Under the pieces are notes generated by a model that made no database searches, had not been told where the DNA came from, and saw only the letters and a program-made list of their open reading frames with translations. 33,638 nucleotides of DNA from a virus (lineage: Duplodnaviria > Caudoviricetes), in IMG/VR virus record IMGVR_UViG_3300037762_000068, positions 1 to 33,638 of that record. The stretch is one strand, 5' to 3'. Positions 15,131-29,880 of this stretch are shown here, in pieces (position 1 is the stretch's first letter; the number at the start of each line of letters is the position of its first letter). A program made the position numbers and the translations under genes.

Positions 15131-16855
15131 TCAGTTGTGCGCGAGCCTCGACATCTCGGCCATCGTCTGCACGCCCGGTGCGGCGAGGAACGGGACGATC
15201 ATCTCGGAGAAGCCGGCGTTGGCCCCCGCCGGGTCGGCGCCGACGGTGACGGTATCTGCTGACCAGTCATCGGGGAGGGTGGCGCCGATAGTCCCGGCGC
15301 TCGCGCTCACCTCGGCGGCACCGTTGACCGACGTGTGCAGTTGGACCTTCCAGTCGCTCCCGTCGAGATAGACGACGACGCGGGTGCGGACGTGGTCGGA
15401 CAGCGCGACGGTATCCGCTGCCGCCGTGGACGTGGCCTCGGTGGTGCCGTCATCGAACGCCGCCACCGGCCGGCCGTTGCTGCCACTCGCGCCATAGAGG
15501 AGTAGCCGCGGGTCAGTGCCCGCCGCCGCACCGCCGAGTTGCCAGATCCGCGAGTCCGCGCCAGTGAACAGCGTCCCCCGCTCGATCCACTCCGAGTAGA
15601 ACGTCGCCCCACCCGCTGCCACGATGTCGGCAGGGCTGAAGTTGATGCTGTCTTGCAGGAAGTCGGCGTTACGCGTCGTGGCGTGGTAGCTGCTCGCGAA
15701 GTTGGCGTTGTCCTCCAGCATCGCGAAGCCGGCGAACAGACCGGAGGCGCCGTCGCCGGTGTAGTTCGCGGTTAAGTCGGCGGACGCCATTTGGCACATG
15801 CTAAGGATGCTCGTCGCGGCGTTGCCCACGGAACCCACGAGCACGCAGCGGTATAGGCCGGCGACGACAGCTGTCCAGTCCTCAATGTAGGCGCGCGCGG
15901 ACGTACCAGTGCCACCATCGCGCTCGGATCCTACCGCTCCCGTAGAGAGGTTGAAGAACGCGTCCACAAAGTTGGCTGGGCTGCCCGTGTCCTCTAGCCG
16001 TAGGTGCGCCCACGTCCGCGTACCCGCGATGTAGAAGCACGACAGCGCATAGTTCACATCGGCGGTTAGCGTCTTGGTCTGGCGCACACCGTGATTGGAA
16101 AGCGACGAATTCTCCACCAACTCGTCCAGCGTCGTGCCGCCCTCCGGGTCGCCGGCCTGATTCGCGGTCTGTGCCGACAGCCCCGTCGTCGCCCAGTCAC
16201 CATGCGTCAGGTCTTCGGGCTGCGTGAACTTGTTGACCCTCGCGCCCTCCAGCAGCGTAGACGGCACCAGCAACCCAGCTTCGTTCTCGACCCAATGCCC
16301 ATCACGCAGCGCACCCGATACAGCAGACGTCAGCACGCCGAGGTTGTTCTTGTAGTTCGCCGTCGTCGCGCGCGTGTGCGTCATGTCGGCGCCACGAGCC
16401 ATGCCACCCGAGTACTTGTACCACCAGGGGGAGAACAGGCGCTGGAGGCCCGTGCCCGATGCGGAGGCGTCGCGCCAGCGCACGCGGATCATGTACTCGC
16501 CGCCGCCGCTCGGGTCAGGACCCAAGTCTTGCGGCTCACCGATCAGCCACAGCGAGAACTTCTGCGAGCCCGCGAGGTGCTGGTAGTAGTCGACCACGAT
16601 ACCGTTGGCCGCGTCGTTCAGGAGCCGCATGAGGTTCTCGGCGTCCTTGTCGTAGCGCAGCGTCGCCTCGACTTCCTCGCGGCCTGCGCCGATGCTGATT
16701 ACTTCGCGGACCGACAAGTCGAGCGAGACGCGTTCCCACCGGTTCGTGCGCCGGGTAGCCGCTACCTGTAGCGCCATCGGACGCGCGAGGACGTGCGTCT
16801 TCTCGGTCTCGCCGGTCGGAACCCACCTAAAACCACTATTGCCCTTACGCGGCAT
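15131..16855 (-). CDS. Distal tail protein fused to carbohydrate-binding/fibre-like domains
   Basis: Position after tape measure; TRATTA.Y...G.L...LLEGAR.N...TRNAD fibre-type motifs. Confidence 0.7.
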   Translation of the reverse strand: MPRKGNSGFRWVPTGETEKTHVLARPMALQVAATRRTNRWERVSLDLSVREVISIGAGREEVEATLRYDKDAENLMRLLNDAANGIVVDYYQHLAGSQKFSLWLIGEPQDLGPDPSGGGEYMIRVRWRDASASGTGLQRLFSPWWYKYSGGMARGADMTHTRATTANYKNNLGVLTSAVSGALRDGHWVENEAGLLVPSTLLEGARVNKFTQPEDLTHGDWATTGLSAQTANQAGDPEGGTTLDELVENSSLSNHGVRQTKTLTADVNYALSCFYIAGTRTWAHLRLEDTGSPANFVDAFFNLSTGAVGSERDGGTGTSARAYIEDWTAVVAGLYRCVLVGSVGNAATSILSMCQMASADLTANYTGDGASGLFAGFAMLEDNANFASSYHATTRNADFLQDSINFSPADIVAAGGATFYSEWIERGTLFTGADSRIWQLGGAAAGTDPRLLLYGASGSNGRPVAAFDDGTTEATSTAAADTVALSDHVRTRVVVYLDGSDWKVQLHTSVNGAAEVSASAGTIGATLPDDWSADTVTVGADPAGANAGFSEMIVPFLAAPGVQTMAEMSRLAHN

Positions 16856-17567
16856 CGGTCCACTCCTCCATGGTCCGATTGCCCTTCTTGCTGTTACATA
16901 GGGCGCACAGCAGTTGGATATTGTCGGGCCAGTTGGAGCCGCCGCGACTCAGTGGCATGATGTGATCCACCGTCCAAGTCTCCCGGATGTCGCCCCCACA
17001 CCCATTGCAGGTGCCGCGCTGCTCCACGAGAAGCCGGCTAGTGTCGGCCTCAGTGAACTCACCCTCGGCATTTCTGCGACGCGCGCGAGCTCTGCGCCAA
17101 CTTGCCCTCACCCGTTCTGGGTTTGCCTTCACCCATCGCTTGTTGGTAGCCCGCTGCCGATCTTTGTTCTCCTGATGCCACTTGCGACAAGCCGCCAGGC
17201 GGGCCTCGCGGTTCTTGCTGCGCTTCTCAGCGTTATACGTGCTATCGCATGGGCGACAGTACGCCTCTAGTTGAGCGGTGCCCGGCCTAAACCTGAACGC
17301 GTCGGGCGGCTTTGTCTCCTTGCACCGCGCGCACCTCTTGGGGGTGTTTCGCGAATGCCGGGTGGGTTGCCACGAAATGCCGCGCAGCACCACCCTCTCC
17401 TCGCGGAGCACGCGGTAGATCACATTGTGACTCACGTCGTACAGTCGCGCGATCCGTGTCGGCGAAGCCTCGGCTCCGTAGAGCGCCACGATGTTGCGCC
17501 GATGGAGTGACGGGAACTCGACCCGAAGGCCGGGACGAACGCACGGCCACATAGTCGAAGCGGGCAT
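16845..17567 (-). CDS. HNH (homing-type) endonuclease with N-terminal HTH and zinc finger
   Basis: CARC...CRPC; CNGC...VDHIMPLSRGGSNWPDNIQLLCALCNSKK. Confidence 0.92.
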   Translation of the reverse strand: MPASTMWPCVRPGLRVEFPSLHRRNIVALYGAEASPTRIARLYDVSHNVIYRVLREERVVLRGISWQPTRHSRNTPKRCARCKETKPPDAFRFRPGTAQLEAYCRPCDSTYNAEKRSKNREARLAACRKWHQENKDRQRATNKRWVKANPERVRASWRRARARRRNAEGEFTEADTSRLLVEQRGTCNGCGGDIRETWTVDHIMPLSRGGSNWPDNIQLLCALCNSKKGNRTMEEWTDAA

Positions 17568-25678: not shown

Positions 25679-27100
25679 TCACGCCCGAGCGGCCAAGAGC
25701 ACGATGGGCGACAGGGTGTCGGATGACTTGTTCGGCGTGAGCGCGGCTCTCCACCACGGAGCACCGGCGTTCCTGAGCCAGAACTTGAACGCCCGCTCGT
25801 GCTCAACGAACCGGACGTGGACCGACTCGGCCGACTGAAGCGGCTGGTAGAGAGCCTCCAGGTACTGGCTGAAGTTCACGAGCGCGATGTCACCCGCGTC
25901 CCCCACCTTGTCCATGTACTCGGAGTAGAAGACCGGCCGGCCCCAGAGCATGTCGGGGAACCGCTCCTGCTGCGCCGGCTGGTAGAGCAGCACGCCGCCG
26001 GTCCCGATCGGGATCGAGAGCACCGCGAGCTGCGGGCGCGTGTCGTGGTTCGCGAGCCAGATCGCGTTCCCGAAGCCCCAGCACCGGGCCGCCATCTTGA
26101 TGATGTTGTTCGCGACGATCGTGTCCGCCGCCTGGCCGGTTTCCTTCGCGACCGAAATCGCCGCCGCCGAGTTCTTGAATCCGAGGAACTCGTTCCCGCC
26201 CCCCCCGCGGATCTTCTCGTCCAGCATGTGCGCGGAGAACTGATCCCGGAACCCGGCCGCGATCATGGCCACGAAGGTCAGCGCGGAATCCACCAGGATC
26301 TCCTCGGTCGCGTAGGCCAGCCCGAACAGGCTCGACGCCTTGAGCGTGATCTTCTCGAGCTCCATCCGAGACGATGACGCGGCCACGGTCTCGGGACGCC
26401 TGGTCACCGTGAGCCCACCCGACACGCTCGTGGTGTGGGTCTTGTCCGTCCGGGCCGAGATCTCGACCGAGGGCGTGACCATCGGGACGGCAGTCGTGCG
26501 GCCGGCCGTGGGGTCGCCCTCGAACGGCGTCGAGAGCATCCCGGGGAGGACCGTGGTCGGCACGGCGAACCCGCCGTAGCGGTCGTCGTAGCCACCCTGC
26601 TCGTCCGATCCGGCGGCGGCCAAAAGGCCCCGCGGAGTGAACGCTTCGGGGAGCATGTAGACGAGCCCGCCGGCAGCGGCCTTGTCCTCCCTGTCGAGGA
26701 CCGCCAGCGGACGGAGCCGCTCGTCCTCCACGCTCGCTCGTTCGCGGGCGCCGGCGTTGTTCATCGCCGACATGAGGAAGTCGCGGTGGGAGCGGAATCC
26801 CTTGCGCGGATCGTCCTCGGCCCGGAGCCGCCCGACCCGCGTGTCCGTGCCCGCGACCTGATCGCGGACAGGCCCGGCGCTGCCGAGCTCGGCCAGCCGC
26901 TCGTTCTTCTTGGCCTCGTCGTGATACGCCGTCTTCGCGGCGGTGATCTGCACATCGAAGACGTCCTGGGCCGACCGCTCCTCGGCGCTGAGCTCGCGGC
27001 CCTCCTCTTCGGCCTTGGCCTGGGCGGCGGTGAGGGCGTCGTTCGCCTGCTTCACCAGGCCGTCCCACTTGGCCCTGAGCTCGTGGATTCGTGCGGCCAT
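25679..27100 (-). CDS. Major capsid protein, HK97 fold with N-terminal coiled-coil delta domain
   Basis: Start MAARIHELR at 27100; GGFAVP, TEEIL.DS, L.GRPV..SE, GDI.L.NFSQY motifs. Confidence 0.93.
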   Translation of the reverse strand: MAARIHELRAKWDGLVKQANDALTAAQAKAEEEGRELSAEERSAQDVFDVQITAAKTAYHDEAKKNERLAELGSAGPVRDQVAGTDTRVGRLRAEDDPRKGFRSHRDFLMSAMNNAGARERASVEDERLRPLAVLDREDKAAAGGLVYMLPEAFTPRGLLAAAGSDEQGGYDDRYGGFAVPTTVLPGMLSTPFEGDPTAGRTTAVPMVTPSVEISARTDKTHTTSVSGGLTVTRRPETVAASSSRMELEKITLKASSLFGLAYATEEILVDSALTFVAMIAAGFRDQFSAHMLDEKIRGGGGNEFLGFKNSAAAISVAKETGQAADTIVANNIIKMAARCWGFGNAIWLANHDTRPQLAVLSIPIGTGGVLLYQPAQQERFPDMLWGRPVFYSEYMDKVGDAGDIALVNFSQYLEALYQPLQSAESVHVRFVEHERAFKFWLRNAGAPWWRAALTPNKSSDTLSPIVLLAARA

Positions 27101-27143
27101 TTCGTGTTCTCCCGGTCGGTCGGCGCCGGGGATGGCACACACG

Positions 27144-27208
27144 AAAAAGCGCGGGTGACGGAATCCCGGCGCCCGAAGTGGTTTCGGGTCACCGGCCGTC
27201 ACACGCGC
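27144..27208 (-). terminator. Long stem-loop followed by U5 (terminator/attenuator-like)
   Basis: Arms 27149-27161 and 27196-27208 pair 12/13; TTTTT follows on the minus strand. Confidence 0.5.
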
Positions 27209-27350
27209 GAGCTTGGCGGCGTGGGTCTTCGGCCTTCTCGGGTCAGCTCACCGGCGCTCAGTGGAGGCCGGGGTGTCGCCGCCCGCTATGTTCTACGCCT
27301 GCATTTTGGGGCCTCGCCCGTTTCCCGTCAAGGCCCCTCCCAACCAACAC

Positions 27351-27523
27351 CCTTTGACTTTGCTCGGCTTCGGTTCGCTAGGCTGCGCTCGGCTCAGCAG
27401 GGCTGCGCTCCGCTTCGCAGTGCTTTGGATTCTTTGACTTTGCTAGGCCCTGCTAGGCTTTGCTGGGCTGGGCTTCGCTGCGCTCTGCTCAGCTGTGCTT
27501 CGCTACGCTGCGGATTCTTTGAT
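27351..27523 (-). ncRNA. 5-nt-period array (NN-AGC)n in two units, putative guide RNAs
   Basis: 27 in-register pentamers (14+13), separated by TCAAAGAATCC; starts right after the stop at 27524. Confidence 0.8.
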
Positions 27524-28033
27524 CTACGCCGCCTCGTCGATCGCTGTGAACACCGCCGCCAGCGCCGGAACGGCCTTCACGAGTACCTCGCGGTACACCT
27601 CATACCGGACCTGAAACTCCCGGAGTCGGGCCAGCGCCTCGGACAGGACTTGCTCGGCCAGGGGCTCCGAGTCGCGCACCTGTTGGATCGTCACGTACTG
27701 GCGGCGTATCGCGCCACCCGCCGGGGTCACCGTGGCCACCGTGACCGAATGAAACGCCCTCACGGCTCGCCGCCCGCTCGCGGTCTGGACGTTAACGAGA
27801 ATCGCGCCGGCCATCTGGCGCGCACGGTTACGGTACCACGACTCGGCGACCTCGTCGAGCGGCCGGTCCATCTGCAGGTGCCGCCGTAGGGGTGTCTCGT
27901 TCGCCCTCGCGTACTCCACGATTTCGACAGGCGAGCTTGCTCCCGACTCAGCCAGGGCGGCCAACTCCGGACCGATCTCCTCCGCGTCTTCGTCGCTGAA
28001 CGGCGTTCCGGGTGCTGCAAAGTACTTGGCCAC
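27524..28033 (-). CDS. Helical partner protein of the RAMP-like gene (phage hypothetical)
   Basis: GTG at 28033, 1 nt after the upstream stop, with GAGGAGG RBS; P.EIVE.AR....PL..H.......A..WY...ARQ....I motif. Confidence 0.8.
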   Translation of the reverse strand: MAKYFAAPGTPFSDEDAEEIGPELAALAESGASSPVEIVEYARANETPLRRHLQMDRPLDEVAESWYRNRARQMAGAILVNVQTASGRRAVRAFHSVTVATVTPAGGAIRRQYVTIQQVRDSEPLAEQVLSEALARLREFQVRYEVYREVLVKAVPALAAVFTAIDEAA

Positions 28034-28034
28034 C

Positions 28035-28667
28035 TCACACCTCCTCGATCTCGGCGCCCTCGATCTCGAACCTTCCGTATTGCCCACCGTTCTCGACGCG
28101 GAAGGAGCCGATCCCAACCGTCCGCCCGGCGAGCATCAGTAGGTGCAGGAATGTCTCCTGGCTGAACAGCGAATGCTCGAACTCGACAACGAACTCCATG
28201 GCCCACCTCTCGTATTTGGGACGATGCACGATTGTCCACGTCCCCTTGATCCGACCGGGACGGGTATCTCTGACGGGCCTCGGTCCCTCGATGGGGATGA
28301 GGTCGCTGCCCGGGACCATGACTGTGACGGCGCCCTTGATCGCCGGCCCCTTCTTCGCCCAGCCCTCACCCATGCGATGGCCCGCAGACGCCATCGCTTC
28401 CACAATGGACTCCAGGGGGTGGCCGTAGACGACCTTCCCGTTCTTGCTCACGGTCGCTGCTTCGAGGATCTCCGCCACTTCCGCGTCGGGGTCCCGCGCC
28501 TCCCTCTTGTTCTTGGCCTTCCCCTCCTGCTTGCCACGCATTCCCTCAATCACCGTCGGACGCCACCGGTTCTGCATGAGCGGGGTGAGCCCCCGGATCC
28601 GCACCTTCATCCTGCCCACGTTCGGAGCGGGGAGCGCGATCGTCTTCGTGGCCTTTGTCTTTGCCAT
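28035..28667 (-). CDS. Stand-alone RAMP/Cas7-like RNA-binding protein (210 aa)
   Basis: ATG at 28667 with AGGAGG; N-terminal strand VRIRGLTPLMQN, P.ES...AM helix, C-terminal Gly-rich loop GIGSFRVENGGQYGRFEI. Confidence 0.75.
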   Translation of the reverse strand: MAKTKATKTIALPAPNVGRMKVRIRGLTPLMQNRWRPTVIEGMRGKQEGKAKNKREARDPDAEVAEILEAATVSKNGKVVYGHPLESIVEAMASAGHRMGEGWAKKGPAIKGAVTVMVPGSDLIPIEGPRPVRDTRPGRIKGTWTIVHRPKYERWAMEFVVEFEHSLFSQETFLHLLMLAGRTVGIGSFRVENGGQYGRFEIEGAEIEEV

Positions 28668-28720
28668 GGTGTAGCCTCCTGTCGGTTTGCGGCCGGGGGC
28701 CGATCCCCGCACCGTACACA

Positions 28721-28750
28721 AATCTACCGACAGGCCGCCGAACTAGTCAA
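28721..28750 (-). promoter_or_regulatory. Sigma70-like promoter TTGACT-18-TAGATT for the RAMP operon
   Basis: Hexamers at 28745-28750 and 28721-28726 in the divergent intergenic region. Confidence 0.6.
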
Positions 28751-28792
28751 GCGAACGGTGTACATGTAGATTCGGGGAGGAACAGGAAGTTC

Positions 28793-29029
28793 GTGAACCG
28801 AGAAGCCGTGAGTATGCTCATCCAGCGCGTACTATCCGACGGTCCGTTCTCCATGAACGAGATCGCCCGCGAGACGGGGTTGAGCTACGACGCACTGCGC
28901 TCGTGGGCCACGGGGCGCCGCATGCCACGCCGAGAGAACATGGAAAAGCTCGCCGCCTACCTGGAGAAGCACGGCAAGCGCCTACAGGACTTCGCGGCCG
29001 AAGTGCGCGTGCTGGCGGAGGAACCCTAG
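28793..29029 (+). CDS. XRE-family HTH regulator
   Basis: SMNEIARETGLSYDALRSWATGRRMP...KLA; start GTG 28793 or ATG 28814. Confidence 0.85.
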   Translation: MNREAVSMLIQRVLSDGPFSMNEIARETGLSYDALRSWATGRRMPRRENMEKLAAYLEKHGKRLQDFAAEVRVLAEEP

Positions 29030-29880
29030 CCCCGCGCCCTCGCCCGCTTCCGGGCCCCCGAATCCAGCGCCGCTGCCTTGCCGGCCCGCTCGCGCCCCAT
29101 CTGCGTCGCACGCTTCACCGCGTCCTCGATCGTCCCGACGTGGTCCGCCATCCCGATCGAGACTGCCTCTTCCGCACCGTAGACCCACGCGCCCCACTCC
29201 GAGCGAATGGTCTCGACGCCGACGCTCCGGCCGTTCGCGCTTCGGCCACGCTTCACGGCGCCGACGAACATCCCGTAGTACCGCTCGATGTCGAGGGTCA
29301 TATCCTCCAGGGCCTCATCGGAGAGCGGCCCGAGGGGGCTGCCCTCGACCTTGCCCTCACCGGCGGACACGAGCGTGACCTTGATGCCCATCTGATCGAG
29401 CGCGACGCTCCAGTCCTCGTGTGCTCCGAGGATGCCGATCGAGCCGATCTCGCCGGACGGGGTGACGAAGACCTCGTCCGCTTGGCTCGCGATCCAGTAC
29501 GCAGCCGATGCGGCGAGGGAATCCGCTGCGGCCACGATCGGCTTCCCGCCGCGAGCAGCCCGGATCTCGGCACCTAGCTCCTCGATCCCGTAGACCTCGC
29601 CACCGGGCGAGTCGATCTGAAGCACCACGGCGCGCGAGCCATCGGCCATCGCGTCCCGGAACGTGGCCCGCGTTCTCTCCACGGATGTGCCGAACCAGCC
29701 TCCGCGCTGCGTGAGGAGCCCCATCACAGGGACGATCGTCACGTCGCCCGCTTGCTTGGCCGCACCCCGAGCCGCCCACACATCCGACGACGCCACGAGG
29801 TCGCCCGCCGCGATAGCGCGAAGGTAGGGGAGGGTGACCGCCCAGAGGCGAGAAGTCGCAAGGTCAGCCGTTTCAAGCAT
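29026..29880 (-). CDS. Prohead protease, S49 (SppA/ClpP-like) family
   Basis: IDSPGGEV, AASAAYWIAS, GSIG motifs; follows portal. Confidence 0.92.
   Translation of the reverse strand: MLETADLATSRLWAVTLPYLRAIAAGDLVASSDVWAARGAAKQAGDVTIVPVMGLLTQRGGWFGTSVERTRATFRDAMADGSRAVVLQIDSPGGEVYGIEELGAEIRAARGGKPIVAAADSLAASAAYWIASQADEVFVTPSGEIGSIGILGAHEDWSVALDQMGIKVTLVSAGEGKVEGSPLGPLSDEALEDMTLDIERYYGMFVGAVKRGRSANGRSVGVETIRSEWGAWVYGAEEAVSIGMADHVGTIEDAVKRATQMGRERAGKAAALDSGARKRARARG

Follow-up and report, generated by a model that had tools for sequence, protein, structure and literature searches.

A probable VIPR-family module with AGC-scaffold guides between the head genes of a sediment phage

IMGVR_UViG_3300037762_000068 is the linear record of a sediment phage of the Caudoviricetes, about 47% complete, and was analysed over its whole length of 33,638 nucleotides (nt), referred to here as the window. 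Its minus strand carries the terminase, portal, S49 protease, capsid and tail genes. Between the S49 head protease (29026..29880, minus strand, Pfam E 3.7e-30) and the major capsid gene (25679..27100, minus strand, E 1.3e-24) lies a small cassette that almost certainly belongs to the VIPR family; a first-pass annotation had placed a compact RNA-guided system between these two genes, and the matches to both flanks confirm that position. In this region an XRE-type gene occupies the plus strand; the minus strand carries a promoter-like site, an open reading frame (ORF) of 210 amino acids (aa), an ORF of 169 aa and an array of pentamers. The 210 aa ORF, vipr (28035..28667), and the 169 aa accessory gene in the vap position (27524..28033) are coupled as first described, running from 28667 to 28035 and from 28033 to 27524 with a gap of 1 nt between the vipr stop and the next start. 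The promoter first described for the cassette corresponds to TTGACT-18-TAGATT (28721..28750, minus strand), which is promoter-like by consensus match only. The record, itself only about 47% complete, contains neither a Cas1 match nor a CRISPR-like repeat family, in line with the earlier claim that cas genes and CRISPR arrays are absent, and the locus thus has the minimal VIPR composition of vipr and an accessory gene without cas operon or CRISPR array.

The 210 aa protein matches the solved SUSP1 Vipr with E 2.5e-12, and structure comparison assigns it a Csm3/Cas7-type RAMP fold in which thumb and G-loop are present. The predicted RAMP/Cas7 relationship, which had drawn on the motifs VRIRGLTPL and GIGSFR..GQYGRF, both found in the ORF, has therefore held up, as has the suggested resemblance to VIPR-type systems, which the locus layout also matches. 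Like the described Vipr proteins to which it is homologous, it is a stand-alone RAMP with an RRM core. The RAMP fold with thumb and G-loop is shared with the class 1 CRISPR backbone subunits Csm3, Cmr4 and Cas7, but identity to these is only about 12-16%, and the present locus differs from them in its pentamer-coded guides and in the lack of Cas1 and a CRISPR array from its record. According to the text of the preprint on the SUSP1 structures, one Vipr protomer occupies each repeat, and G1 is read by H17 and D177, G2 by R138 and W178, and Y3 by R179 (10.64898/2026.04.26.720927). The equivalent residues of the window Vipr are N33 (H17), R149 (R138), S188 (D177), F189 (W178) and R190 (R179). The residues that read the second and third letters are thus retained, and the acid that reads the first G is replaced by serine and H17 by asparagine.

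The array starts at the stop codon of the 169 aa ORF, as had been noted, but it is not the single array first described and consists of two units. On the minus strand an 11 nt leader, TCAAAGAATCC (27512..27522), which recurs ahead of unit 2, is followed by candidate guide 1 with 14 NN-AGC units (27442..27511), where NN is a variable dinucleotide. A constant 15 nt linker, AAAGTCAAAGAATCC (27427..27441), then spans three 5 nt steps and keeps the register, and candidate guide 2 with 13 NN-AGC units (27362..27426) is followed by the constant 3′ end AAAGTCAAAG (27352..27361). The dinucleotides read GC GT GA AC TG AG GC GA CC CC AA CT AG CT in guide 1 and AA AC GA GG GC CC TG CG GC CT GA GA CG in guide 2, and both strings differ from those of a relative, locus L004. 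With linker triplets included, 13 of 15 triplets in unit 1 and 10 of 14 in unit 2 are exactly AGC, which bears out the reported use of AGC in place of GGY; the deviating triplets include GGC, TGC and ACC. No other such period-5 tract occurs in the window, and in ten sequences simulated from its dinucleotide frequencies the number of exact units never exceeded 3-4. The fixed triplet with variable dinucleotides in runs of 9-16 units that defines VIPR pentamers is therefore present; the canonical GGY triplet is not. Read as CNNAG, the repeat fits the YNNNG class, and the family definition admits related consensus sequences, YNNNG, NNNGG and NNNNG being listed as alternative repeats in the methods of the discovery paper (10.64898/2026.04.26.720920).

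The accessory protein is predicted to consist of a helical N-terminal domain, a long β-hairpin and a long C-terminal helix (predicted local distance difference test, pLDDT, 92.3), and its putative function is DNA or filament binding. It matches phrog_15946 with E 2.4e-6 and has 29 detected relatives. A profile built on it matches 28 ORFs among 204 other VIPR loci, and the 24 of these that are present in trees all fall within the clade of the window, which points to vipr with a phrog_15946-like partner being a stable type. Members of the same partner family accompany Vipr in Gordonia phage UmaThurman (gp39/gp41) and Cyanophage Cy-LDV1 (profile E 2.5e-11 and 9.8e-11). UmaThurman also falls in the starred clade of the window, but both of these phages combine a GGC scaffold with glutamate and have units staggered by 1 nt.

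Set beside the type II VIPR of SUSP1 (Vipr PDB 36PP; bioRxiv 10.64898/2026.04.26.720920,.720927), the locus shares a homologous RAMP with the equivalents of R138, W178 and R179, the order vipr, coupled accessory gene and array, and 5 nt units of a fixed triplet and a variable dinucleotide. It differs in its AGC triplet, in the residues at the H17 and D177 sites and in having only two guides, which are joined by the 15 nt linker and lack the structured 3′ tail that each SUSP1 guide carries, the sole hairpin lying after unit 2. A further difference, and one that weighs against the functional reading given below, is that the partner has no detectable similarity to Vap1 (probability 0.3%).

The exchange at the D177 site was followed across loci picked by DNA pattern alone from IMG/VR (at least 120 AGC, 138 GGC and 143 CGC stretches) and pooled with 35 loci chosen by protein. 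Among the matches listed, Vipr is present at 15 of the 120 AGC-pattern loci. The 198 Vipr matches were reduced to 140 with a called array and a sufficiently long alignment, and to 100 at less than 90% identity; three labels were set by hand, L004 as AGC (a degenerate array missed by the caller), L205 as GGC and GT-N rows as G-first. At the D177 site an acidic residue (D/E) is absent from all 11 A-first and all 25 C-first rows and present in 57 of 64 G-first rows. A scan of GTDB contigs yielded 59 loci, six of them with Vipr and five distinct, all carrying a small residue at this site. With these loci, SUSP1 and UmaThurman added, the 107 non-redundant loci show D/E in 0/16 A-first against 59/66 G-first cases (Fisher p 6e-12, kinship ignored). 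On a quickly built tree with the D177 column masked, the A label requires nine changes, at least four of which are forced by starred branches. Within the starred clade of the window D/E occurs in each of the 24 G-first rows; the residue is S, S, C and A in the four A-first rows and N in the single C-first row. The residue at the D177 site and the first scaffold letter are thus strongly associated in the aligned sequences.

Several side observations touch this association. The CGC-selected loci L296-L436 form a large Vipr clade with arginine at the D177 site, seen in 22 of the 25 C-first rows, and with the thumb residue R138 replaced by F, Y or M; near the CGC systems L307, L357 and L383 there is a second array of another triplet or strand, possibly reflecting two systems or solo guides. 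GT-N scaffolds lie next to a Vipr with D at this site in L018 and L021. Contrary to the rule, a long-branch clade (L182, L207, L219, L221, L230) combines a GGC scaffold with threonine. AGC arrays with varied dinucleotides occur without a Vipr match in the retrieved DNA at L041, L052, L072, L073, L095, L096 and L098, and may represent solo AGC guides or cut loci.

It was also considered whether the 210 aa protein might be a stand-alone Cas7-like protein, either an anti-CRISPR or an RNA binder, beside an unrelated microsatellite. The RAMP fold would fit this, as would the 105 of 120 AGC-pattern loci without a listed Vipr match in the retrieved DNA. The proposed check of homologues for 5 nt periodicity, however, found pentamer arrays beside them, on the vipr strand at 127 of 138 loci with a called array; moreover, the dinucleotides vary where the triplet is fixed, and the identity of the triplet follows that of a residue with which it is known to make contact. 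Such a chance neighbourhood is very improbable indeed.

From the association it is tentatively proposed, with a chance somewhat short of even, that VIPR uses a recognition code in which the first scaffold letter is determined by the residue at a single G-loop position (an acid giving G, a small residue A, and arginine together with an aromatic thumb C), that the code has switched many times and that AGC is orthogonal to GGY. In the favoured reading given below, loss of the G-loop acid (S188 in place of D177) would let the first pocket accept adenine, and R149, F189 and R190 would continue to read G2 and C3. In the text of the preprints SUSP1 Vipr needs D177, and perturbing the GGY motifs, with GGY to AGY among the changes tested, is reported to abolish silencing (10.64898/2026.04.26.720920,.720927). 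Some of the data weigh against such a link between residue and letter. Only four independent pairs lie on starred branches, and with three agreeing and none opposing they do not reach significance (p 0.25); the quick tree has long branches; and residue and letter do not correspond one to one, as threonine occurs with G (five rows), A (three) and C (two) and arginine with G (two), the G-first exceptions lying in divergent clades.

The protein could instead be relaxed at the first letter, accepting A, G or others, with AGC fixed by homogenisation of the repeats and with neither an A-specific code nor orthogonality. No base-specific contact is obvious for small residues, five different residues occur with A, only about 16 of 28 triplets of L004 are exact AGC, and the deviating units of the window would also be explained. 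Against this, A is the main first letter in all 16 small-residue AGC loci (88-100% where counted), and relaxation alone would not predict A every time over at least four separate changes. This alternative is considered unlikely, though it carries real weight.

The VIPR preprints describe in their text pairing of the dinucleotides with a target under a one-base skip and repression as the outcome (10.64898/2026.04.26.720920, 10.64898/2026.04.26.720927). A case for this rule on an AGC scaffold comes from another phage, AGC locus L110, one guide of which was searched with eight dinucleotides and gave 26 matches, 16 of them distinct. All 12 inner dinucleotides of this guide (24/24 at a one-base skip) are matched by seven contigs sharing one sequence, which is expected by chance at about 3e-4 for the eight unseeded bases, and two further contigs are nearly complete. 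Over L110:3096-3163 (minus-strand numbering) the scores are 26/28 for L518, L520, L522, L523, L533, L539 and L542 and 25/28 for L526 and L540, and other skips score 16-17. The target gene, from a phage, contains a DUF927 domain, the skipped base falls on the third codon position, and the match lies on the stretch GLPTPTIVSSGYG, a primase motif. At the level of sequence this match indicates that the published skip rule holds for at least one AGC guide.

Other target searches detract from this picture. The L110 guide was chosen because it looked codon-like, and it is the only one of the 24 guides in the L060/L092/L110 group that matched the fetched target phages, the other 23 giving no match. 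Across 2.05 Mb of fetched loci the 62 AGC guides showed no enrichment (7 vs 3 at 85%). The guides of the window have no target after three seeded IMG/VR scans, with best scores of 18/28, 22/26 and 19/28 that are within chance; the three seeds of eight dinucleotides gave 1, 19 and 5 matches, none of which extends past chance, and about 0.55 matches as good as the 22/26 (to L444) are expected by chance. Guide 1 matched 0 of 555 loci at three mismatches, and a guide of L467 had no match among 201 genomes from its family.

These blank searches would fit a decayed or idle module whose guides now match nothing and which is carried along in the head operon as a passenger. Both genes are nevertheless intact and coupled, the invariant residues are kept and the scaffold is well preserved. 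Moreover, two contigs from another study of sediment cover the region, and the one that spans the array differs from the window, among the differences listed, only outside it. The targets may also be unsampled, as GTDB yielded no close relative of the partner gene. An idle module is therefore judged improbable.

Somewhat less probable still is that the module acts on its own phage instead of on rivals, regulating for example the head genes or the missing part of the genome. The protease and capsid genes on either side, a promoter-like site directly behind the array and the absence of about half of the genome from the record would leave room for this. No self-target was found in the window at skips 0-2, however, the best matches at skip 1 being 18/30 and 19/28, and the discovery paper saw no self-targeting in the sets tested (10.64898/2026.04.26.720920). 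The head-gene setting is also uncommon, the fetched DNA of the 204 other VIPR loci containing capsid homologues at none, protease at one and portal at three.

The favoured reading, held with high confidence, is that the cassette is a VIPR-family module that functions much as described for its relatives, with Vipr on two AGC guides silencing matching DNA of rivals. The homology, fold, array, residue association and L110 target are observed; the later steps follow the SUSP1 model. The array would be transcribed from the promoter upstream of vipr and the transcript cut into guides, on which Vipr would likely polymerise as a filament with one subunit per five bases. DNA that matches the variable dinucleotides, one target base in three being passed over, would be bound by this complex, and genes of competing phages or mobile elements would be repressed without being cut, the partner protein assisting.

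The XRE-type helix-turn-helix gene (28793..29029, plus strand; HTH_3, E 1.6e-6), which probably starts at GTG 28793, is divergent from vipr and convergent on the protease. The first-pass annotation had counted it as part of the cassette; because a homologue is found in the fetched DNA of none of the 204 other VIPR loci, its membership in the system is not supported and it is regarded as a neighbour. Since those loci also rarely contain head genes and L004 has a different gene upstream, the VIPR module is likely mobile and its placement in the head operon incidental.

Behind the array, a hairpin (27337-27308) overlaps the promoter-like TTGACG-17-CAAAAT (27331-27303), which is aimed at the capsid gene; this element (27303..27337, minus strand) may be an RNA tail or the end and restart of head-gene transcription, and its promoter-like sequence would restart transcription of the capsid gene. 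The capsid leader (27100-27240, minus strand) is predicted to form long hairpins (z -4.25, with 0/200 shuffles as good), has no Rfam match and is variable among related contigs. A 4088 nt contig of run X1 aligns at 27019-27241, over the capsid start and leader only and without covering the array, a hint of related phages without the cassette at this site. Elsewhere in the window, two 12 bp tandem arrays (3-182 and 928-1431) lie inside minus-strand reading frames and give four-residue repeats, and an endonuclease VII/HNH gene (16845-17567, minus strand) is located directly behind a tape-measure-like gene.

VIPR itself and VIPR repeats with other triplets have been published before: the texts of the preprints describe 21 clusters with non-canonical triplets (10.64898/2026.04.26.720920,.720927, 2026.10.15.759431, 2026.10.21.760802), and GAC, CAC, WGT and TGH occur beside Vipr in the Evo-PIN study (10.64898/2026.10.21.760802). 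The present locus resembles these in having a non-GGY triplet next to a Vipr fold and differs in that neither a natural AGC scaffold nor a rule linking residue to letter is stated in the preprint texts searched, although figures (S17 of the discovery paper, S10 of Evo-PIN) or data tables may show AGC systems. By itself the locus is one further VIPR member with no known target. VIPR is of wider interest as a small programmable DNA binder proposed to be older than CRISPR, and a natural AGC system with serine at the D177 site reduces the question of scaffold specificity to a two-mutant experiment. If the code is true, it would provide orthogonal VIPR tools in the form of mutually insulated, re-codable RNA-guided DNA binders. 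Satellites are reported, in the text of one preprint, to hijack Vipr via solo guides (2026.10.15.759431); under the same condition AGC systems would be shielded from hijack by solo GGY guides, which would give phages a reason for scaffold switching.
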